Assembly (NCBI GenBank): GCA_017397645.1 | Contig: JAFQIE010000026.1 | Coordinates: forward strand, 42,941-106,940 | Reading direction: 5' to 3' | Length of the DNA stretch: 64,000 bases | From: Lachnospiraceae bacterium | GTDB lineage: Bacteria; Bacillota; Clostridia; Lachnospirales; Lachnospiraceae | Shown: positions 37,259 through 48,917 of the stretch, in pieces | Layout: every line of letters starts with the position of its first letter | Position numbering within the stretch: the first letter of the stretch is position 1 | Program-made: the position numbers and the translations under genes | The notes under the pieces: model-generated | Database searches by the model: none | What the model was told of the DNA's origin: nothing | Seen by the model: only the letters and a program-made list of their open reading frames with translations

Positions 37259-38086
37259 ATGAAAAGAATATTCTTTGAATCCCATGATATGAAAGACAGA
37301 ATACATATTTATCACCACACTGTCTTGAAGAAAAAGCCGGCCGACTACGTGGTGGGTTTTAATTGGCATGAAAACATCGAGATTCTCTGCATTGCAGATG
37401 GTGCAGGATATGTGCTGTGCAATGGTAATAAGCGCAAAGTCACCAAGGAAGATATTTTCGTCATTAACGCTCACGAACTCCATGGTATCACCACGGAGGA
37501 TACATTGGAATATCATTGTGTCATCGTGAAGTCCGACTTTCTTGCTGCCAATGGGGTGCACACTCCCGAACTTCACTTCCCTAACCTAATTCAAAGTAAA
37601 GAACTTTTTTCTTTATATATGAATGTGGTGCAGGAAATTACAACGGAATCCAAATATCGTGATTTGGGCATCCGTGCCCAAATACTGGAATTGTTTGTTT
37701 ATCTTATGAGGAATCATTTGACAGAATCTCATGTCCCCGCACAAGAACCCGGTGCGCTGGAAAGTATCAAGAAAAGCGTCATTTTCCTCCACAGGGAATA
37801 TGCCCGCAAGCTGACATTGGACGAGATAGCAGACGCGTCCGGTTTAAGTAAATATCATTTTTCCAGAGAATTCAAAAAGGCCACTGGTTCCACCGTGACC
37901 TCCTATTTAAATATGGTTCGTTGCCAACACGCCAAACTATTAATTGCAAGCGGGGAACATTCGGTCCACGATGCTGCAATCATGTGCGGATTTACAAATG
38001 ATTCTTTGTTTTCCAAGACTTTCCAAAATGTCATGGGATGCCTGCCGTCGAAGATTAAATCCAAACAGAGTTTTGCTATACACTAA
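37259..38086 (+). CDS. AraC family transcriptional regulator (cupin sensor)
   Basis: NWHENIEI cupin, SKYHFSREFK, CGF..DSLFSKTF. Confidence 0.9.
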   Translation: MKRIFFESHDMKDRIHIYHHTVLKKKPADYVVGFNWHENIEILCIADGAGYVLCNGNKRKVTKEDIFVINAHELHGITTEDTLEYHCVIVKSDFLAANGVHTPELHFPNLIQSKELFSLYMNVVQEITTESKYRDLGIRAQILELFVYLMRNHLTESHVPAQEPGALESIKKSVIFLHREYARKLTLDEIADASGLSKYHFSREFKKATGSTVTSYLNMVRCQHAKLLIASGEHSVHDAAIMCGFTNDSLFSKTFQNVMGCLPSKIKSKQSFAIH

Positions 38087-38946
38087 TCAAATTGCCGTTC
38101 TACGCTCTCTATCATACCAATAACAGCATTATTTAGTTCACATGCTTTTTTTGATGTTATGACAGGTGTTCCCGCTGCAGCTTCTATCGCCATTCGTGCG
38201 TTACCCGCTATGCCACCACCTCGTCTAGCCACGTTCCTACTCTGCTCAAATCCTTCGGGATGAATTTGCCTAGAAATTTCCGTTGTAGCTGTTTCGGCCA
38301 ACATATTAAGCACAATTTCGGTAGTACTCATATTGTCCCTTAAATTTTCCTTTTTTAGCCCCTTAAAATCTTTATACTCTCTCGTGGACATTCCTGACCA
38401 GGCTCGCGTAATCTCGTCCGTTAGAATAGCATACTCTTTTCCCGGCTTAACACCCCTGTCCTGCCATTCATCAGTCAGTTCTTTTCTAACCTGTATCGCC
38501 TGTAATCTTTGATTAATCCATTCGCGGGAGTATCCCTTTTTCAAATATGTATCCAAGGCTCTGTCTATCGTGAGTTCAGGATCTAATGTCTCCTCTATGC
38601 GTTCGCGTCCAACCTGTGCCAACCACATTTTAAGTGGTTCCGCTTTTTTTGAGGGAATAGACTGGATAATGCGGAGAAGTTGCTCTGTGTCAGCAACATC
38701 TGTACTATACCGTTTGCCATCTTTAGGAGACATCATTTTCAGTTGGTAACAATTTGTAACCAACTCATTTCCTTCCTCCTTCAATCTGTTTTTTAACACC
38801 TTCCAATAATTTCTTGCACCATCGTAATCCGTTTGCTCCGTCAGCACTCCCACAACATCCACGACCGAAAAGTACCATTCCTCTTTTTCAGTATCCCAAG
38901 CCGTACGAATCGGCTGCTCCTCAAACAATTGAACTTTGTCACTCAT
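38083..38946 (-). CDS. Bro-N domain protein (phage antirepressor-like)
   Basis: IRTAWD..EEWYFSVVDVV, RNYWKVLKNRL, RIIQSIPSKKAEP, LRDNM. Confidence 0.85.
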   Translation of the reverse strand: MSDKVQLFEEQPIRTAWDTEKEEWYFSVVDVVGVLTEQTDYDGARNYWKVLKNRLKEEGNELVTNCYQLKMMSPKDGKRYSTDVADTEQLLRIIQSIPSKKAEPLKMWLAQVGRERIEETLDPELTIDRALDTYLKKGYSREWINQRLQAIQVRKELTDEWQDRGVKPGKEYAILTDEITRAWSGMSTREYKDFKGLKKENLRDNMSTTEIVLNMLAETATTEISRQIHPEGFEQSRNVARRGGGIAGNARMAIEAAAGTPVITSKKACELNNAVIGMIESVERQFD

Positions 38947-39145
38947 TTGCGCTACCCCTTTCATTCAATTTTTGATCATATAGCAATTGGTATCTTAAAA
39001 GTCTTGGAATATACGAAGGTGGGGTTCTTTTGCCTGCTTCCCAGTCCTCTATCGTTCTAAGTGGGATACTCGTATATTCAGAAAACTCTCTTCTGTTCAT
39101 TTCCGTGCTTTCTCTCATTTGTCTAATCATCTGTGCTAACTCCAC
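38939..39145 (-). CDS. small XRE-family HTH protein
   Basis: MNRREFSEYTSIPLRTIEDWEAGKRTPP; GTG start after AGGAGG; overlaps the Bro-N start. Confidence 0.8.
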   Translation of the reverse strand: MELAQMIRQMRESTEMNRREFSEYTSIPLRTIEDWEAGKRTPPSYIPRLLRYQLLYDQKLNERGSANE

Positions 39146-39218
39146 TTTTTGCACCTCCTGTTTATATAATATCACACTTCAAGGCACAACGCAATGCGTG
39201 GTTTTTGGAAAAATATAT

Positions 39219-39764
39219 TTATTGCTCCATCAATCTTCCCAAGAATCCTGCTGCCGACTGGATCATCTTCATGTCAGCCTCGTTCATCTTCACCTTAGCA
39301 TCATTTTGGAGTAGCACAACACACCCAATGATGTCCCCTTCGCAAAGAATGGGCACCATGGCTTCATACTGATACTCTCCATCCACTTCGTCACAAACAG
39401 CCACAAAGTTCCTATCTCCCTTTGCCGCCATCACACTTTCTCTGTTATGGATTTTTTCATCCAACACCTTACCCACCGGTTTGTCCAACATCTGTTTATA
39501 TCCACCGGCAACAGCGATGAACTTCTCCCGGTCAGCAATCAGTGCCGCATGGCCGGACACCTGTGCCAGGCTCTCCGCATACTGCTTGGCAAATCCGATC
39601 ATTTCTCCAATAGGGGAATATTTTTTTAAAATAATCTGCCCTTCCCTATCGGTATATATTTCTAACGGGTCGCCTTCACGGATGCGCAGAGTGCGGCGGA
39701 TTTCCTTGGGAATCACCACACGGCCCAGGTCATCGATTCTTCTCACAATTCCTGTTGCTTTCAT
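39219..39764 (-). CDS. spoVT: stage V sporulation protein T
   Basis: MKATGIVRRIDDLGRVVIPKEIRRTLRIREGDPLEI AbrB domain plus GAF-like C-terminus ending AAGFLGRLMEQ. Confidence 0.95.
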   Translation of the reverse strand: MKATGIVRRIDDLGRVVIPKEIRRTLRIREGDPLEIYTDREGQIILKKYSPIGEMIGFAKQYAESLAQVSGHAALIADREKFIAVAGGYKQMLDKPVGKVLDEKIHNRESVMAAKGDRNFVAVCDEVDGEYQYEAMVPILCEGDIIGCVVLLQNDAKVKMNEADMKMIQSAAGFLGRLMEQ

Positions 39765-39773
39765 ATATAAATC

Positions 39774-39830
39774 AATCTCCTTGTTTTAGTAATAGTGATA
39801 CTATTATCTGTAAAACAAGGAGATTTATAC
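39774..39830 (-). promoter_or_regulatory. sigG/sigF-type spoVT promoter with a 15-bp inverted repeat covering the RBS
   Basis: GTATA-17 nt-GATAATA on the minus strand; AATCTCCTTGTTTTA (39774-39788) / TAAAACAAGGAGATT (39811-39825). Confidence 0.65.
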
Positions 39831-39840
39831 TTTTATAGAT

Positions 39841-40863
39841 TTATTTTTCAAAAAAGACGGGCTTTCCTGATTTTGCGCTTTCATAGATTGCACAAATCAA
39901 TTTTTGAATTTTGAGCGCCTCTTTGCCGCTTATAAACGGTTCTATACCTTCTTCAACAGAATGGTAAAAATCGGCAATCTGGCGGATGTGCTGGAATCCC
40001 CAATAATCCTTGCCGCCTTCGTAGTAGATGCCGTCGTCCTGCTGAGAAACGGTCTCCACGGTGCCGTCAGCAAATTCGATCCGTGCATCATCGTAGCTCA
40101 TCACCACTCTACCCTTTTCGCAGCAAAGGCGAATCTCAATCGGGTCATCACAGCCATAGTTATTCATTGCCCAGAACGCCATCGTTGCTCCATTTTTATA
40201 GCGGATATAGCCCTCGCCGGTATCGTCCACCTTCATAATATCGTGGGCACGGTTGGCGATGCTTGCCTGAACTTCAATCGGCTCGGAATTGATGAACCAG
40301 TTGGCAAGATCCAGCGAGTGGATTGCCTGATCGATAATAACACCGCCACCCTCTTTATCCCAGGTGCCTTTCCAATCGGAAAGGGAATAATAGGAGTCCG
40401 GCTTACACCAGGTAAGGGTGCAGCGGGCGCTAATGATCTTGCCCAGCTTGCCGCTTTCCAGGTTTTCCTTGACCGACCGGGAAGTGTTATTATAGCGGCA
40501 TTGGAAGATGATGCCGTAACGCAGGTTCTTTTCCTCTGCCAGGCGAACGTTGGCTTCGCCGCTTTCATAATCGATGCTCATCGGCTTTTCGCACAGCACA
40601 TTCACACCGTGTTCCAGCGCATAGCGTGAGATGATAGGGTGCATATAATGGGGAACACAGATATGGACAACGTCCGGTTTCTCTTTTTCGATCAGTTCCT
40701 TGTAATCATAATATGCGGGAACGTTATATTTTTTTGCCGCTGCGTCTACACGGTCGGGCTTAATGTCGCAAACGCCGACAAGCCTAGCGTTTTCAAGATG
40801 GTCCACACTGGTGGCGTGCATTGTGAAGATGGAGCCGCATCCGATAATTCCAACTCTAAGCAT
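39841..40863 (-). CDS. Gfo/Idh/MocA family oxidoreductase
   Basis: GIIGCGSI, NVLCEKP, WKGTWDKEGGGVIIDQAIH. Confidence 0.93.
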   Translation of the reverse strand: MLRVGIIGCGSIFTMHATSVDHLENARLVGVCDIKPDRVDAAAKKYNVPAYYDYKELIEKEKPDVVHICVPHYMHPIISRYALEHGVNVLCEKPMSIDYESGEANVRLAEEKNLRYGIIFQCRYNNTSRSVKENLESGKLGKIISARCTLTWCKPDSYYSLSDWKGTWDKEGGGVIIDQAIHSLDLANWFINSEPIEVQASIANRAHDIMKVDDTGEGYIRYKNGATMAFWAMNNYGCDDPIEIRLCCEKGRVVMSYDDARIEFADGTVETVSQQDDGIYYEGGKDYWGFQHIRQIADFYHSVEEGIEPFISGKEALKIQKLICAIYESAKSGKPVFFEK

Positions 40864-41834
40864 TAGCCCAACTCCCTTTCAAGCAAGAATTTAAGCGAAG
40901 CGGAGCCGTCGGCAAGGGTTGCTTGCTTGATCTCTTCGCCGTTTTTCGCACACTCGGTAAAATAATAAAGCTCGTTATAATATCCGCCAAGATCGGAAAT
41001 GTTTCCGCTTGTGCCGCCCATCGCACTGAGTTCTTTCTTTTCAATCTTGATTTCCTCTACACCGCCGTCAGTATAGAGCATAAATTTGCCACCTGCATTT
41101 TCAACAACAGCCTTTTCAAATACCACACGGAAGGTTGCCTCAAACGGGTGCGATGCAGGCAGACCCCAAGTACCCTCGACGGTGATGGCGCAATCATCAT
41201 ACTGCATCAAGGTATTTACATAGGAATTCTTTTCACTCAAAGTGTTTCTTACAGAGTGAAGCGTCTTAGGTTCACCGAAAAGCGACAACACAAAATCCAC
41301 ATCGTGAATATGCAGATCCTGCGCCGCACCGCCCGAAAGAGAAACATCGTGCAACCAGTTGTTCCAGCCCCAGTCCGGGCTCGGGCTGATGCGGCGGAAG
41401 TTCGCGTTGACGACCTTGCCGTATTTGCCGCTACGAACGATATCACGCAGGGCTACATATTCATCCCAAAAGCGAATAACCTGACCAACCTGAACAAATG
41501 CGCCGGTTTCCATCTGCTTCGCCTTCAGCAACTCGCTTTCGGCGATGGTGAGGGTGACCGGCTTTTCGACAAAGACGTAGCGAACCTTTTCCATAGCGAG
41601 CAGTGCGTATTCGGCGTGAAGATAGGTGGGCAGACAAATGTCGATGATATCCACGTCTGCCTGCTCAATCAACTCTTTACCGTCGCCGAAGATCTCGGCG
41701 CCGTCAGCTAACTGCGCTGCCTTTTCGGGGCGGATATCCGCTACTGCGGCGAGGGTTACACCCTCTAAAGCTTTATAACAATTTGCGTGCATGGTGCCCA
41801 TAAAGCCACAACCGATAAGTCCAACTTTCAACAT
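40863..41834 (-). CDS. Gfo/Idh/MocA family oxidoreductase
   Basis: GLIGCGFMG, VFVEKP, SGGAAQDLHIHD. Confidence 0.93.
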   Translation of the reverse strand: MLKVGLIGCGFMGTMHANCYKALEGVTLAAVADIRPEKAAQLADGAEIFGDGKELIEQADVDIIDICLPTYLHAEYALLAMEKVRYVFVEKPVTLTIAESELLKAKQMETGAFVQVGQVIRFWDEYVALRDIVRSGKYGKVVNANFRRISPSPDWGWNNWLHDVSLSGGAAQDLHIHDVDFVLSLFGEPKTLHSVRNTLSEKNSYVNTLMQYDDCAITVEGTWGLPASHPFEATFRVVFEKAVVENAGGKFMLYTDGGVEEIKIEKKELSAMGGTSGNISDLGGYYNELYYFTECAKNGEEIKQATLADGSASLKFLLERELG

Positions 41835-41836
41835 GT

Positions 41837-42679
41837 TTATTTCCTCCCTAAAATTCGGTCCATTGCATTGGATGTGTTATATATAATCGTTTCAGTATGA
41901 TATTTATAATTGGGGATCATCTCAGCAGTTACCCAACCGTCATAACCGACTCGCTCCAGTTCTGTCATCACAGCAGGGTAATTGACGTCGCCTGCGAGCA
42001 GGTCTACAAATCCGTGCAAACCGCCGGCCTCCACCCGATAGTCTTTAAAATGCACCTTTTTGATCCGGTTGCCCAAGGTGCGGATCCAGTGTTCCGGATA
42101 GCCATTGGCAAGGGTGTTGCCGATATCCAGATAACTTCCCACATAGTCGCTACCGATTTCATCAATGAAATTGCGCATTTCCATCGGAGAAAGCAGGAAT
42201 TTGTTCCATACATTTTCAAGTCCGATGTTCACCTTATATTCCTCGGCGCATTGCTTTACCTTCATTATCGATTCGAAACTGCGATTATAGCAGGTTTCAT
42301 AATCCATCACCTTGCCGGGAGCGGCAAACTCGGCATTCACACAACCGGGAATAACAAGAATAGACTCGCAGCCGAGAGTCGCTGCTGTTTCTAACTGCTT
42401 TTTTACGATATCCTGTGCCTTGGCGCGAATCGTCTCGTCTGCATCGTTCAGGAAATACGACCAATAAAGCCCGCAGGCAACGCTGTAAAGCTCGATGCCA
42501 CTTTCTTTTGCCTGACGCTTGACCTCAAGCAACTCCCTTTCGGTGGACTCGAGCGTAATCTCGCCGGCGCCCTCATCCAGAGCCACCTCTACGCCCTCAA
42601 AGCCGGCGTCGGCGGCAAGGGCAAAGGTTTCGGCCAGTGTTCCTTCGGGGAATGACCAGATGCTGATACCTTTTTTCAT
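41837..42679 (-). CDS. sugar phosphate isomerase/epimerase (xylose-isomerase-like TIM barrel)
   Basis: AGFEGVE, GLENVWNKFLLSP, YLDIGN, VHFKD, GYDGWVTAE. Confidence 0.9.
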   Translation of the reverse strand: MKKGISIWSFPEGTLAETFALAADAGFEGVEVALDEGAGEITLESTERELLEVKRQAKESGIELYSVACGLYWSYFLNDADETIRAKAQDIVKKQLETAATLGCESILVIPGCVNAEFAAPGKVMDYETCYNRSFESIMKVKQCAEEYKVNIGLENVWNKFLLSPMEMRNFIDEIGSDYVGSYLDIGNTLANGYPEHWIRTLGNRIKKVHFKDYRVEAGGLHGFVDLLAGDVNYPAVMTELERVGYDGWVTAEMIPNYKYHTETIIYNTSNAMDRILGRK

Positions 42680-42797
42680 AGAAAAACCTCCTTGCTTTTT
42701 TTTAATTTTCTGTTATCATTGTATTAAACAAGTGCATTTTTGAACAGTTATTTTTGTGCTTTATATGTTCATTATCGTACACGTAGGAGGTGCCACC

Positions 42798-43670
42798 TTG
42801 GAAAAAGGATATATTAAAACGCGACCCAAAACGGTCGTAGATATTACAAAAATTGTTACGATTCATTATTACGAGGTAGGTAAAGACTTCATTTTCGACG
42901 GCGAATGTCATGATTTCTGGGAAATGGTTTATGTTGATAAAGGTAGTGTTGCCATAACGCGTGACGGAGAAGAAATCATTCTCACGCAAGGCGAGATTAT
43001 TTTTCATCGCCCAAATGAGTTTCACACCATTCAATCCTTTGACTCAGCGCCAAACTTTTTTGTTATCTCGTTTGTTTCATCGTCCCTTGCTATGAAATAT
43101 TTCGAACACTTTTATTCCCCGCTTAAAAAGATACACAAATCTCTTTTGACCTCTATCATTAAAGAGGCAGAGGAAAGTTACCTTATTCCGAAAAATGACC
43201 CCAACTTACGCAAACTACGACGACGAAAAGATGCGCCTCTGGGTAGTGAACAACTTATAAAAAGTTATTTAGAGCAACTACTCATCTATCTTCTGCGCTC
43301 GGATAAAAGCACCGAAAGCACCGCCGTTCTTCCACCCTTGGCAGAAGAAAAGCCGCTGGTTTCAGCGCTAAAGGATTATATTTGCTCTCGATGCGAAGAA
43401 AACATAAAGGTTGACGAAATCTGCCGGGCGTTCGGTTATAGCAAAAGTTTTTTAAGCCGACTGTTCCGCGAATACACAGGAAGTAGTCTTGCTGCCTTTG
43501 CAATTGCTCAAAAAATGGAACGCGCAAAAGAACTTTTGCGTGATGATCGCTTTAACATTACACAGATCTCCGCTAAACTTTCTTTTGAAAATCCGCAGTA
43601 TTTTGCTCGTGTTTTCAAGCGCGAATGCGGTATGACGCCGACCGAATGGAAACAACTGGCATGCAAATAG
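42798..43670 (+). CDS. AraC family transcriptional regulator
   Basis: GECHDFWEMVYVDKG cupin; FENPQYFARVFKRECGMTP; TTG start after AGGAGG. Confidence 0.92.
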   Translation: MEKGYIKTRPKTVVDITKIVTIHYYEVGKDFIFDGECHDFWEMVYVDKGSVAITRDGEEIILTQGEIIFHRPNEFHTIQSFDSAPNFFVISFVSSSLAMKYFEHFYSPLKKIHKSLLTSIIKEAEESYLIPKNDPNLRKLRRRKDAPLGSEQLIKSYLEQLLIYLLRSDKSTESTAVLPPLAEEKPLVSALKDYICSRCEENIKVDEICRAFGYSKSFLSRLFREYTGSSLAAFAIAQKMERAKELLRDDRFNITQISAKLSFENPQYFARVFKRECGMTPTEWKQLACK

Positions 43671-43682
43671 GTTTTTGATGAC

Positions 43683-43712
43683 AAAAAGCGAGGTGAAAAT
43701 CACCTCGCTTTT
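43683..43712 (+). terminator. intrinsic terminator
   Basis: AAAAGCGAGGTGA-AAA-TCACCTCGCTTTT. Confidence 0.8.
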
Positions 43713-43752
43713 GCTATGTATAAAAAGCCGTCCAAAACCCGATTTTGACACC

Positions 43753-43831
43753 AATGCGTTCAATGGGGCAAACCAGTGAAAACCCTAGTGCTTATGCGGG
43801 TTTCAAGCGGTTTGCCCTATTATAACGCATT
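43753..43831. repeat. 79-bp imperfect palindrome at the element junction
   Basis: AATGCGTT..GGGCAAACC..GAAAACCC / GGGTTTC..GGTTTGCCC..AACGCATT. Confidence 0.85.
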
Positions 43832-43927
43832 CCTCTATACGGCGTACTATACCTGTTGCTTTCATATATAAATCTCCCTTAAATTCAAATCGTGATACTA
43901 TTATTTGTAATTTGTAGGAATTTATAC
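43803..43927 (-). pseudogene. spoVT: spoVT 5' fragment (copy 2) with its promoter and RBS
   Basis: ATG at 43865 gives MKATGIVRRI then EECVIIGQTA*; upstream 36 bp match the intact spoVT promoter at 27/36 positions. Confidence 0.85.
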
Positions 43928-45284
43928 TGTTTGATATTAAAAACTGTCTAAAAGGATCAATGTTGCATGTGACAACATAATAAAAATCAGGGAACAATAA
44001 CCAATGTTTTAACGTATATTGTTCCCTGAAAGCATCTAATATTCGTTTGATAATAAGAAATCAAGTTGTCACCGACTTCAAGAAGACGGTCATATTCTCT
44101 CTTTTCAGTCTTCTCTGATTTGATTTCCTTGGTTATTTGAATATAAAGTTTATCATTCTGTCTAGTGGCGATAAAATCAATTTCTCCGTTCGGTGTTTTG
44201 CCGATACAAACTTCATAACCTCGGCGAAGCAATTCAAGGTAAACCACATTTTCAAGCATTGCAGCAACACTCTGGTCATTATAACCTAGAACACTATATT
44301 TGAACGAACTATCTGCAAGATAAAACTTCTCTTGTGTTTTAAGCAGTTCCTTGCCTTGCACATCATACCTTGAACAACGGTGCAGTATATAGGCGCTCTC
44401 CAATTTTTCAAGGTAATTATATACCGTCTCGTTGTCTATGGTGCGATGCTCGGACTTGATGTAATCGGAAATAGCCTTTGCTGAGAATGTCTTACCTACA
44501 TTGTCAAAGACAAACTTCAGAACTCGCTCTAACTGGTCAACCTTGCGAATTTGATTTCTCTTAACGACATCTGAGAATATGGTTGAATTATAAATATCAC
44601 GAACAATAGTATAAGCATTGTCCAGCGGATACTCTTGCAAGTGTATTGCGGGAAAACCGCCATACCTGATATAATTTATCAATTCCTTGTGAATGTCTTC
44701 TACCTCGCCATACCGCTTTTTAAATGTGAGATACTCCTCAAATGAAAGAGTGAATATACGGAAGGATACGTAGCGACCTGTTAGATAGGTTGCAATCTCG
44801 GAAGACATCATACGAGAGTTAGAACCGGTAACATATATATCCACATCAAAATCCGTATTGATGGAATTTACGGTTTTCTCCCAAGAAGTTATTTCCTGCA
44901 CTTCATCAAGGAACAAGTAGGTTTTCTCGGTATCTGATAATTTTGATTTAAGCATTTCGTATAACTGCTTTGCTGTCATATCTTCATATTCCATCGAGTC
45001 AAAGCGATAACTTATGATTCTTTCATCTCTAATCCCTCTTTTACGAAGTTCGTCCATTATCATTTGCATAATAGTGGATTTGCCACAACCACGAACATCG
45101 AGAATTTAGTTGGTCAATAGTTTTGCGGTTATAACCCGAAAAACTTTTCATAAATTACTAAAGTTGCGGTTATGATCAGGGTCATTGTAAGCCCTTATAT
45201 CTTTCTACCACACTATCTATGCATGCTTAATCAAAATCTTTGCTGTTATTATTTTCGTTTTAAGGGTATTTATACCGTGAGCCT
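43835..45284 (-). mobile_element. decayed cassette (about 1.45 kb) between spoVT 5' copies 3 and 2
   Basis: Bounded by two MKATGIVRRI-coding segments; contains a doubly truncated AAA-DUF4143 gene. Confidence 0.6.
43987..45105 (-). pseudogene. AAA_14/DUF4143 ATPase truncated at both ends
   Basis: Walker A remnant VRGCGKST directly follows an in-frame TAA with no start; similarity to paralog 14787-15977 stops after GDN (YPK motif missing). Confidence 0.75.
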
Positions 45285-45315
45285 CTATTCTACGGACAAT
45301 TCCTGTTGCTTTCAT
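45217..45315 (-). pseudogene. spoVT: spoVT 5' fragment (copy 3)
   Basis: AAAGGAG RBS, ATGAAAGCAACAGGAATTGTCCGTAGAATAGAG = MKATGIVRRIE, then unrelated sequence to TAG (32 aa). Confidence 0.85.
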
Positions 45316-45484
45316 GTACAAAAACTCCTTTTCATTCTTGCTAAAGTTACTTGAAGTTTAGGGGTATTATACCGCAGCACTATTGTCGGTAAAATATTCA
45401 GAAACATGTTGACCAGCGCGATAGGGACCGCTATAGAAAATGCACACATTTTAGGCATAAGCAACATAGGCATAAATCCAACAC

Positions 45485-45556: not shown

Positions 45557-45910
45557 TTATTTGAACGGATTGATGTAATCAAACACATCCAAGTACTGAC
45601 CAAAGAACTCTCTAAAACTGCCGAACTCTCCGTCAGACTGGATATTGATGTAATCCGTCAGCGGTCCGCTGATTAAAGCGCCGATAGCCACCAAAATAGC
45701 CGTAAATATGTAGCCTAAGACAATCCAAATCAATGCTGCAATAGCAAAATTTTTGATATTCTGGTTCTTAGCTACAAAAATCATAACGATACTTGTAATC
45801 AAGCCAACAATAGGAATAGAGAATAATACAATCAATCCGATATATATACCTACCCCAACCGGCTTTCCTGCATTGTTGATCATAGGTTCTTGCACTTCAT
45901 GTTTTTCCAT
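45557..45910 (-). CDS. hypothetical membrane protein (2 TM)
   Basis: AAGGAGG RBS; IPIVGLI..I and N-x-KNFA-x-A pattern of small Firmicute membrane proteins. Confidence 0.75.
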   Translation of the reverse strand: MEKHEVQEPMINNAGKPVGVGIYIGLIVLFSIPIVGLITSIVMIFVAKNQNIKNFAIAALIWIVLGYIFTAILVAIGALISGPLTDYINIQSDGEFGSFREFFGQYLDVFDYINPFK

Positions 45911-46038
45911 AATTTAGCCCTCCTTGGTTCATTGGTGTAAACCGTTTTTCTAAAACAAAAACCCTTTACACTATATGTATAGTATAAGGGGTTTTTCTAT
46001 GTAAAACATCCATCTTAATCTCGAAAAAAAGTATGGTA

Positions 46039-47268
46039 TCAAACAAAATCTATCAACTGCTTTCGTTTTTCAACACCGGTTTTGTCCTTTGCTGCGCGGA
46101 TTAAAGTTTTCACTGAGGATTCACTGATAGACAACCGTCTGGCAATCTGTCCGTCCGATAATCCATAACAAACAAACCGCGCTACCTCCCGCTCTCTGGG
46201 CGATAGATGAACGGCCACCGTCTTCTTCAAAACGGCGTTATGCAATTTCGTCCAGCCGGCATGTAATTGCTTGTGCAATTCCTTTATCTTTTTCAGCGCC
46301 ACCGGATCCACAAAGGCAATGCGTCCATCCATAAAAGAACCCAATTGCCGCCTGTACTCCACCAAAGGTCCATACAAACCATCTGCCAAGCAAATGGCAA
46401 TGGCCTTATCCAAATGCCGAATCGCTGCCGCGTCGTCACCTCCCTGCCGGTAAGCCACGGCACAGGTAAGCCGCAAATAGACTTCCGCCAAGATTACCCT
46501 ATCTAAAACAACCTGCGAAATCAACGGTTCCAACACGAAGGGCAATATCTTCATAAATGCCATCCCCCGAACGCCATCTATCTCCAAACTGCCCATGGCA
46601 AGTTCCTGCGCTGTTACCAACAAATGCCTTGCGTAATAAACATAGGCTGCAGGGTACGCGTCTCTGGGCAGGAAATCAAAGCATCCTCCCGCAAACCAAT
46701 CCGGGAAGTCATCCGTATCACGAATGGCACTGTCCGCCGCCGCAATGGAAAGTGCTAAAATATCCCTGTCCACATCATTTTTACAAGGCACATCCAACAG
46801 ATGCCTCCTGGCTTCGTTCCACAGCCTCACATCGCCCTTCCACATGGCCACCAAAGACAGTAAGATTCCGCCGGAAACAATTATATAAAAATCCGTGTGG
46901 TTATCCAAAAGCTCCCTGGCGTGTTCATAAACCTGCTCAATTTCACCCCTGCTGTAATGAATGGCTGCCGAAAATAACATGTGGCTTTCTTTGCTGTATG
47001 CCAATGCATCCATGCTTTGATCTGCAGTTCCCGCTTCACGATATAGGTCTGTCATGTGTAAAAGGGGGCTCTGCCGAAGCAGCTGTTTCGACTGACTATT
47101 TTTAGCCTCCCTATACCTTCCATCCGCAGGTTTTTGTGCCTCTGCGGGAATCATCCAGTTATGACCAAAGTATTCTGCCCCGGGAATTTTGCCCTTTTTG
47201 CAATATCCCTGGACACTTCGCAGGGATATACCCCACTTTTCTGCTGCTTCCTTCGCTGTAATTTTCAT
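46039..47268 (-). CDS. transcriptional regulator with N-terminal excisionase-like HTH and C-terminal LuxR HTH
   Basis: MKITAKEAAEKWGISLRSVQGYC..GKIPGA....NWMIP; LSPREREVA....GLSDGQIARRLSISESSVK. Confidence 0.8.
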   Translation of the reverse strand: MKITAKEAAEKWGISLRSVQGYCKKGKIPGAEYFGHNWMIPAEAQKPADGRYREAKNSQSKQLLRQSPLLHMTDLYREAGTADQSMDALAYSKESHMLFSAAIHYSRGEIEQVYEHARELLDNHTDFYIIVSGGILLSLVAMWKGDVRLWNEARRHLLDVPCKNDVDRDILALSIAAADSAIRDTDDFPDWFAGGCFDFLPRDAYPAAYVYYARHLLVTAQELAMGSLEIDGVRGMAFMKILPFVLEPLISQVVLDRVILAEVYLRLTCAVAYRQGGDDAAAIRHLDKAIAICLADGLYGPLVEYRRQLGSFMDGRIAFVDPVALKKIKELHKQLHAGWTKLHNAVLKKTVAVHLSPREREVARFVCYGLSDGQIARRLSISESSVKTLIRAAKDKTGVEKRKQLIDFV

Positions 47269-47349
47269 CCGCCATCCCTATCTTTCGTTTCTGCGCAATT
47301 TATAATTTCATTATATTGCTTTTAGGCGGAATTTGCAATACCGGGGGTT

Positions 47350-47487
47350 CTATTCCTTCACTGTTCTTTCCACAATGGAGTCCTGGGTCGTCTTTGCCAA
47401 ATTGTTAAAGTATTCCGAGTATCCGGTCACTCTGACCCTGAGGCTTCTGTACTTCTCCGGGCAGGCCTGCGCTTCCAAAAGTTCTTC
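47350..47487 (-). pseudogene. C-terminal fragment of a glycyl-radical enzyme (PFL family)
   Basis: Manual translation EELLEAQACPEKYRSLRVRVTGYSEYFNNLAKTTQDSIVERTVKE*, containing the RVxGY glycyl-radical motif; in-frame TAG immediately upstream. Confidence 0.85.
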
Positions 47488-48245: not shown

Positions 48246-48917
48246 ATGAATCAAGCGCAAACGAGGTACAATGACATGCCAAACAATGCAGTGATTTTCG
48301 GTGATAGTTATTCCACATTTGAGGGGTATAATCCTAAAGGCTACGCCACCTATTATTCCATTCAGGATCCTAACGAATCCGGCGTGACGAAGAAAGAAGA
48401 AACCTGGTGGCACCAGGTGATGGATGAGGGCCACTTCAACTTATTGCATAACAACAGCTGGTCCGGTTCCACCATCTGCTACACAGGATATGATGGTGAT
48501 TGCTCCCGCTCTTCTTCGTTTATCTATCGGTTAGAGCAAAAAATAGAAGAAGGATTCTTCGAGCAGAATGAAATAAATACTGTCTTCGTGATGGGTGCCA
48601 CCAACGATGCGTGGTGTGGTGCCGACTGTGGCGAAATGAAGTACGACAACTTTGAAAAGGCAGATTTGTACAAGGTGCTACCCGCCATCTCCTATTTCTT
48701 CAAAACCCTGCGGAATGCAGTCCCCCAGGCCAAGATTTATTGTATGATAAACGCAGATTATTTGACTCCGGAAATTACGAAAGGTTTTCAGGATGCCTGC
48801 GGGAAATATGACTTAGTCGAGGTTTACATCAAGGATCTGCCCGTGGCCGGTGGACATCCCACCGTGGAGGGTATGGAGTACATCAAAAATTGTGTCATGC
48901 TTCAAGTGAATCAATAA
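48246..48917 (+). CDS. SGNH/GDSL hydrolase
   Basis: FGDSYST, NSWSGST, GATND, GHP. Confidence 0.88.
   Translation: MNQAQTRYNDMPNNAVIFGDSYSTFEGYNPKGYATYYSIQDPNESGVTKKEETWWHQVMDEGHFNLLHNNSWSGSTICYTGYDGDCSRSSSFIYRLEQKIEEGFFEQNEINTVFVMGATNDAWCGADCGEMKYDNFEKADLYKVLPAISYFFKTLRNAVPQAKIYCMINADYLTPEITKGFQDACGKYDLVEVYIKDLPVAGGHPTVEGMEYIKNCVMLQVNQ

Follow-up and report, generated by a model that had tools for sequence, protein, structure and literature searches.

CIMEs (ICESt1/ICESt3 at fda) are decayed ICEs or IMEs that keep both attL and attR, lie at gene 3′ ends and belong to tyrosine-integrase systems (PMC5704250). They carry no recombinase, sit in tandem beside a regenerated target, and are known to accrete and to be co-transferred with an incoming ICE (PMC5704250). 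Composite SCC and ccr-less islands at rlmH, together with the Enterococcus cassette chromosome (PMC13739063, PMC6222049), pair large serine recombinases (LSRs) with a conserved target gene, internal att sites, ccr-less segments and variable cargo, the SCC core itself preserving the rlmH 3′ end. Sporulation genes are split by gin, which lies in gerE of Bacillus cereus (PMC5595907), and by skin and SPbeta (PMC6957869), elements whose mother-cell targets need excision; intervening elements of this kind lie almost exclusively in mother-cell genes (PMC6957869). In integrons a repeated site alternates with small cassettes of diverse content and no recombinase to form an array, and in Tn4451/TnpX the joined circle ends form a sigA-type promoter (Lyras and Rood, 2000, cited in PMC13023037).

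Here we describe stacked cassettes at spoVT, a gene under forespore sigF/sigG control (PMC7438776, PMC11237016), in a window of 64,000 nt (the whole stretch of a Lachnospiraceae MAG that was analysed). Like CIMEs these cassettes lack integration and transfer genes, but they combine an attL arm with an attB-type right end consisting of promoter plus gene start rather than keeping attL and attR, they lie at a gene 5′ end, are of the serine type, and recur across families as uniform units of one or two genes; tandem arrangement with a related ICE was seen in one case, outside the window (L075/L232). In contrast to SCC, the target is codon 10/11 of spoVT rather than the rlmH 3′ end, the gene loses its start to the parent element and regains one, with a developmental promoter, only through the cassettes, and the arrays usually hold no recombinase at all; an LSR domain set was found in the parent ICE. 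This ICE resembles gin, skin and SPbeta in carrying three serine recombinases in a row and in splitting a sporulation regulator, which its precise excision would rebuild. The analogy with excising sporulation elements drawn in the original prediction is closer for the parent than for the cassettes, for which no excision is required and which leave spoVT, a forespore gene, intact in the window. From integrons the arrays differ in having no IntI, no apparent attC consensus and no common Pc; orphan promoters meet a terminator in about half of the cassettes, and among the 31 with a last gene pointing away from spoVT, 20 have an inward sigA-type promoter of their own. Tn4451 differs as a single resolvase transposon of low target specificity.

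The intact gene (39219–39764, minus strand; 181 aa) was identified as spoVT by profile matches to PF15714 and PF04014, the TIGR02851 score of its product (233.1 bits) lying slightly below the cut-off of 235.9. Its first ten codons occur three times on the same strand, with ATGs at 45315, 43865 and 39764 (1,450 and 4,101 bp apart) and a ribosome-binding site (RBS) before each, and nowhere else in the entire 1.81-Mb MAG. Both upstream copies, copy 3 (45284–45315, minus strand, followed by a degenerate arm) and copy 2 (43834–43865, minus strand, the B half of an attL-type junction), keep the GA of codon 11, diverge from spoVT at the same base directly after it and have TATAA exactly 9 nt past the breakpoint; the first 32 nt of spoVT (39733–39764) constitute a regenerated attB-type site. 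The promoter blocks of copies 2 and 1 are identical at 27 of 36 nt, whereas the leader of copy 3 (45316–45480, minus strand) is unlike either and more decayed. The three copies with their RBSs, the common breakpoint, the 27-of-36 match and the different leader of copy 3 had been described in the original prediction and were found again in the sequence. Compared by eye with L009/L021, the copy 3 leader appears to resemble a decayed native-type promoter of the host genus, and copy 3 is probably the oldest junction; two other loci (L255/L256) are without this leader, their match to the window stopping at 45481.

Between these gene starts lie two cassettes, whose anticipated contents, a sugar operon and a broken ATPase, were confirmed by domain matches. 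Cassette 1 (39733–43833, minus strand; 4,101 bp) comprises an arm, genes for an AraC regulator, a TIM-barrel isomerase and two Gfo/Idh/MocA dehydrogenases, a promoter and the ten codons. Its three-gene sugar-oxidation operon (39841–42679, minus strand; genes at 39841–40863, 40863–41834 and 41837–42679, NCBIfam scores all below cut-off) is divergent from the AraC-family regulator (42756–43670, plus strand). The right end (39765–39840, minus strand), which now drives spoVT, contains an RBS and a promoter block (39796–39831) that appears sigF/sigG-like; 87 nt of this end are 97.7% and 92% identical to cassette ends in Lachnospiraceae and Ruminococcus MAGs (L088, L101). The conserved left arm (43683–43833, minus strand), the P′ half of an ICE attachment site, has a −10 hexamer at +9, an imperfect inverted repeat (43762–43821) and a terminator-like hairpin (43683–43712), and over about 105 nt it is near-identical to the ICE left end seen in L075. 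Cassette 2 (43834–45283, minus strand; 1,450 bp, 35.9% GC) consists of a decayed arm and a broken AAA_14/DUF4143 ATPase gene (43987–45069), whose Walker A is altered and preceded by a stop codon and whose C-terminus is truncated; the right end of the cassette (43866–43935, minus strand) holds an orphaned, likewise putatively sigF/sigG-like block (43893–43928) and an RBS. A possible third cassette at 45557–47268 was also examined; its LuxR and membrane genes have counterparts in the L035/L109 cassette (53% and 46% identity, respectively), and L255/L256 carry the same pair without a junction.

Although the source is a MAG (74% complete), the idea that the three copies reflect an assembly artefact or a chance duplication of abrB-like paralogs is hardly credible. 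Over 4,582 bp that include junction 2, the sugar cassette and spoVT, an independent conspecific assembly (L250) matches the window without a single mismatch, so the observation is not an assembly artefact, and the copies differ from one another at synonymous sites. Nor is the junction due to chance, since the pattern was found in 97 stretches of GTDB genomes and in 11 of 400 sampled Clostridia genomes, against 0 for a reversed-pattern control. As had been expected of relatives, these stretches combine variable cargo with a conserved breakpoint: att-site spacing, on which 97 loci had been selected, is kept at 124 of 127 junctions, and all 126 broken copies encode the same ten residues with synonymous differences only, in part imposed by the search pattern. 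The 65 closed cassettes (0.6–6.9 kb) have a common left arm of about 125 bp and no detected recombinase; 49 hold one or two genes, and 50 have a forespore-type promoter block at the right end. Arrays are sporadic, occurring in about ten families, with three genuine other matches among 200 members of the genus; a further genus match (G244) was rejected as an intact gene matched through an allowed mismatch. A plasmid collection gave a single match of 102 nt, and Rfam gave none at gathering level.

As predicted, no serine or tyrosine recombinase was detected in the window, nor any LSR or tyrosine recombinase, and hence no IntI, in 113 array loci (the tyrosine queries being the host's own enzymes). 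The host MAG has zero matches to the serine recombinase families PF07508/PF00239 at its 74% completeness, its six tyrosine recombinase matches, all away from the site and arm, lie on other contigs, and both MAG and window are without the triple LSRs plus conjugation genes of the parent type. In 50 array-bearing MAGs there were generic LSRs alone (24–44% identical to LSR3), none adjoining a junction, and no LSR3 relative above 44% identity; because MAGs often lose ICEs, this absence carries little weight.

The parent class is present in a genome of the same genus (G004), as a 91-kb element with VirB4/VirD4-type conjugation genes and three LSRs at its right end; rejoining its ends yields a perfect spoVT and an attP with TTGACA-17-TATAAT. 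A small ORF upstream of the LSR triplet, which belongs to DUF6870 in relatives, is a candidate directionality factor. Cultured commensals, such as Acutalibacter isolates, also carry the ICE. This ICE cuts spoVT after codon 10, such that attL is the ten codons plus the arm and attR is the −35 half plus the spoVT body. Relatives of LSR3 (50–96% identity) end at the same spoVT base in nine of 10 metagenome loci and seven of eight looked-up proteins. The site and arm derive from triple-LSR ICEs cutting spoVT at the same base, which bears out the suspected link to serine-recombinase elements. The arm folds, and covariation links its pair of 7-mers (72 and 4 matched pairs), with no consensus structure over 115 arms; since the same 7-mers also occur in the attP arms of the ICE, fold and covariation can be accounted for by recombinase binding sites.

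ICE right ends lack the promoter module, and the ICE attR half is missing from cassette ends. Because all autonomous elements found have at their end a true attR, which cuts off the start of spoVT, and a replacement 5′ end is supplied by none of the LSR3-relative elements and by no autonomous element among about 15 distinct right ends, the cassette is, on this comparison, an attL…attB passenger and not an ICE minus its integrase; the suggestion that the elements were left after integrase loss was thus not upheld. That the cassettes are immobile leftovers of whole ICEs whose machinery was lost would fit the arms derived from ICE left ends, the decay of cassette 2 and junction 3, and the eroded junctions in G025, but is very improbable given those right ends and recent allele change within a species, and is largely refuted by near-identical (99.4–99.8%), same-bounded cassettes in distant hosts. 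The sugar cassette recurs with the same bounds in L254 at 87% identity, while the host SpoVT is just 48% identical; L043 and L061 have cargo 99.4% identical and SpoVT 55%; and in L035 and L109 the cargo is 99.8% identical, yet the ten codons are not kept with the cassette. These comparisons show that cassettes move between distant hosts. In a comparison of 11 homologous cassette pairs, the leader was inherited together with the cargo (83% vs 60% for random pairs), unlike the ten codons (6.2 vs 5.1 mismatches). Of the proposal that each element brings a promoter plus ten codons, the promoter half therefore stands and the codon half does not; spoVT does stay intact through a cassette-borne promoter.

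The conspecific L250 shares the spoVT-proximal cassette of the window and differs in the distal one, the switch point falling inside the arm (+3 to +33). This does not support the strictly polar, single-crossover stacking once envisaged, and the position of the exchange point indicates that homologous recombination also shuffles the arrays. Such exchange could even be the main mechanism, as in the minimal mobile elements of Neisseria, the ICE having merely seeded a junction repeat within which double crossovers, in arm and leader, swap cassettes arriving by any route. We consider this unlikely. Beyond the switch within the arm and the codons that are not co-inherited, it would account for the drop in identity of homologous cassettes toward the core from both sides, for adjacent copies that resemble each other more than expected by chance (mean of 4.08 vs 4.90 mismatches, p = 0.0006), for long identical leader runs between adjacent copies (7 vs 1.8), for the mosaic cassette arms, and for the YqaJ-type exonuclease carried by the ICE. 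However, a naive lineage offers only about 32 nt plus weak leader homology for first entry, yet arrays appear sporadically; att-site spacing, a selection criterion for 97 loci, is kept at nearly all junctions; and a live ICE has the same arm.

With moderate confidence, and on the strength of sequence comparison, we favour the reading that passenger cassettes left behind by ICE excision have built up into an array at this locus, on the attachment site used by a triple-LSR ICE clade. The ICE would enter the regenerated attB at spoVT; excision between its attR and the attL of the upstream cassette would produce a cassette-plus-ICE circle, which would conjugate and integrate in a new host, where later excision from the ICE's own attL would remove the ICE and leave the cassette, its promoter then driving spoVT. 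Only attP × attB and attL × attR reactions would be needed, with no recombinase or oriT in the cassette. Given at least two junctions, homologous recombination between direct repeats of about 230 bp would delete or swap cassettes, and would also scramble the ten codons and arm patches. Because spoVT is a forespore gene, only inserts leaving it intact would be expected to persist through spores. The intermediate predicted by this ICE-passenger model may be represented by L075/L232, where an 836-bp cassette precedes an ICE with a left arm matching that of copy 2 in the window; this is the sole such tandem seen, and its recombinase end is unassembled. In L227 an ICE right end is joined straight to a cassette-type arm, which favours the model, although this may simply be the circular form of an ICE. 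If transfer were purely site-specific, the ten codons should remain with the cassette upstream, which was not seen, even in L035/L109; end exchange is thus about as frequent as transfer and could even predominate. The model has no account of how the first cassette acquired its promoter and gene start.

Unusual site pairs are tolerated by multi-LSR systems, Ccr among them. Integron-style, as in the original prediction, each cassette could excise alone as a small circle and be reinserted by an LSR in trans (attL × attB or attL × attL), a scheme that suits single-gene, uniformly bounded cassettes and a regenerated target. We judge it improbable: crossovers are found off the core, no oriT or relaxase was identified for intercellular transfer, the array-bearing MAGs are without the LSR, and serine integrases normally do not recombine such pairs (PMC3783163). 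A broader view, which we hold only tentatively and think rather unlikely, is of a self-sustaining, clade-wide cassette system distinct from integrons and CIMEs, in which single-gene cassettes in their thousands would circulate in gut Clostridia without a resident integrase, all built to a standard pattern of ends, an ICE att arm at one and a forespore promoter with gene start at the other, the need to rebuild spoVT in the forespore timing ICE excision and depositing cassettes in the spore lineage.

The literature searched, in which subscription papers were mostly outside coverage, held nothing on spoVT with a recombinase or attB, or with a genomic island in Clostridia; neither spoVT nor abrB occurs in PMC10083194 (text and supplements) or PMC6957869, nor spoVT in PMC5595907. 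We could not find a description of the spoVT cassette system there; it is related to CIME/SCC-type accretion. A defined LSR clade with attB, attP, attL and attR makes directionality in triple-recombinase systems directly testable, and the site is a natural, self-regenerating landing pad in Clostridia. The arrays will cause mis-annotation of spoVT, and island finders based on integrases or on tRNA/3′-end repeats would miss them, although they point to a widespread means of gene exchange among uncultured gut spore-formers that has no name so far. Mobile DNA can land in a forespore gene without sterilising the spore line, and the system gives bacteria integron-like gene swapping at spoVT in many gut Clostridia.

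The three spoVT starts in the window (ATG 45315, 43865 and 39764), each with its own RBS, were found in the sequence as the original prediction had described them, and so were the breakpoint they have in common, the promoter block with 27/36 identity and both blocks of cargo; the MAG contains no other broken or intact spoVT start. In a conspecific, independently assembled locus (L250), the 4,101-bp sugar-dehydrogenase cassette and spoVT match the window without mismatch over 4,582 bp, while a different cassette lies upstream. This excludes an assembly artefact and reveals within-species variation. A close relative, G025 (SpoVT 94%), has the same backbone on either flank; the cargo in between is unrelated to the window's, the junction is eroded, and the assembly breaks within the array. 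G025 also contains a fused junction (L193, G025:C9:100-240), in which spoVT codons are deleted and the cassette leader abuts the arm end.

An HTH and Bro-N gene pair immediately 3' of spoVT (38083-39175) is missing at that place in G025, and its HTH region is a 68% match to cassette DNA of locus L102. At 45557-47268, a LuxR/HTH gene and a 117-aa membrane gene share 53% and 46% identity with cassette genes of loci L035/L109; this is possibly an older cassette that has lost its ends, yet the relatives L255/L256 have no junction there. Compared with these two loci, where genes for AraC, a glycyl-radical enzyme and an M20 peptidase separate the aldolase gene from the LuxR gene, the window is missing ~4.5 kb at 47303-47483. 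Homologues (51-55% identical) of a GDSL/SGNH-type gene (48246-48917) adjoin the arrays of three loci (L061, L102 and L114), a hint that old cassette cargo may make up the upstream region more widely.

Searching GTDB genomes for a broken start plus arm matched 97 stretches, mainly from Acutalibacteraceae, Oscillospiraceae and unclassified Clostridia in animal-gut MAGs. They hold 127 broken spoVT copies, 124 with TATAA 9 nt past the core, a feature on which the 97 loci were chosen. The closed cassettes (n = 65; 0.6-6.9 kb; mean GC 36%) mostly carry one or two genes (49/65), conserve the left ~125 nt, and in 50 cases end in the promoter block. Their cargo, judged by eye and part annotated, spans regulators, transporters, Fic-like and defence-like genes, surface proteins and sugar enzymes; no recombinase was detected across 113 array loci. 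Junctions occurred in 11 of 400 sampled Clostridia genomes from about ten families (control, 0); a set of 200 genus relatives gave 3 genuine matches. Two further sequences were assembled apart from an intact spoVT: L203 (G149:C208) is an array of three broken copies, two of them decayed by codon changes, on a contig unconnected with the intact spoVT of its genome, and L195 (G203:C54:39363-39405) is a junction-like sequence on a contig away from the intact gene. In L176, L179, L215 and L106 the spoVT body also breaks at about codon 33, which suggests a second insertion site.

Recurrence of the same cargo in different hosts indicates that the cassettes are mobile. Cargo is 99.4% identical between L043 and L061 (SpoVT 55%), L035 and L109 are 99.8% identical over 4.6 kb, and the window's sugar cassette recurs at 87% identity, between the same junctions, in a distant host (L254) whose SpoVT is 48% identical.

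A parent is apparent in G004, of the same genus, where a 91-kb conjugative element with three large serine recombinases is inserted at the same spoVT base as the cassette junctions. Rejoining its ends in silico restores spoVT and yields an attP reading TTGACA-17-TATAAT, with inverted-repeat symmetry; the cassette-arm TATAA is thus the -10 half of the ICE circle promoter. A comparable promoter at the circle junction is reported for Tn4451 (cited in PMC13023037). Among relatives of LSR3, one of the three recombinases, down to 50% identity, nearly all elements end at this spoVT base and none supplies a new spoVT 5' end. In L227 an ICE right end is joined to a cassette-type arm; in L075 a cassette comes first and then an ICE, the left arm of which is almost that of window copy 2 (43865). 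An ICE therefore has the form attL...attR and beheads spoVT, whereas the attL...attB form of a cassette repairs the gene. In some ICE-split alleles the reading frame stays open across the ICE end and into the body of spoVT (L222:7697-8299, L223, L216:13392-13973), which might yield a SpoVT protein carrying a foreign N-terminus.

The simplest route using canonical reactions only would be cis-mobilisation, for which there is ICE precedent (PMC5704250). An ICE would integrate at the regenerated attB, excision starting from an upstream attL would take cassettes along with it, and later excision of the ICE alone would leave them behind. Such a route accounts for the absence of the recombinase from array genomes, spread across families and the L075 tandem; it leaves the junction sequences unexplained. 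In homologous cassettes the leader travels with the cargo (83% versus 60%; none of 5,000 random draws reached this value), but the ten codons do not (6.2 versus 5.1 mismatches). Neighbouring copies resemble each other more than shuffled ones do (p = 0.0006, inflated by kin and shared haplotypes), and all six sites differing between window and L250 arms fall at arm +3 to +33, with none beyond. Taken together, these patterns mean that crossovers also occur within the arm and close to the ATG, and they point to homologous recombination among the repeats. We take such recombination as a second layer, of cassette loss and swapping, upon cis-mobilisation, although it could, with lower probability, be the main route of cassette movement. 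The ICE of G004 carries a gene for a YqaJ-type exonuclease (PF09588; L138:2104-3138), which could promote short-homology recombination between junctions; no partner annealing protein was identified.

In its working the array resembles CIME accretion and SCC composites, and in appearance an integron, but it departs from a defining property of each. The parent ICE is like gin, with three recombinases each (PMC5595907), but here too the array differs in a defining property. In the literature searched, no paper was found that describes spoVT as a site of integration.

Judging from conservation upstream of native spoVT genes, the right-end promoter appears sigF/sigG-like. The orphan promoters are probably silent for cargo, given that a terminator-like hairpin closes the arm in 33/65 cassettes and that an inward sigA-type promoter accompanies 20 of the 31 cassettes in which the last gene points away, compared with 1 of the remaining 33. 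The intervening elements known so far are nearly confined to mother-cell genes (PMC6957869), and spoVT is expressed in the forespore under sigF/sigG (PMC7438776, PMC11237016). We infer that, in a forespore gene, an insert that restores the start would cost the spore nothing, and that the right end is kept for this reason.
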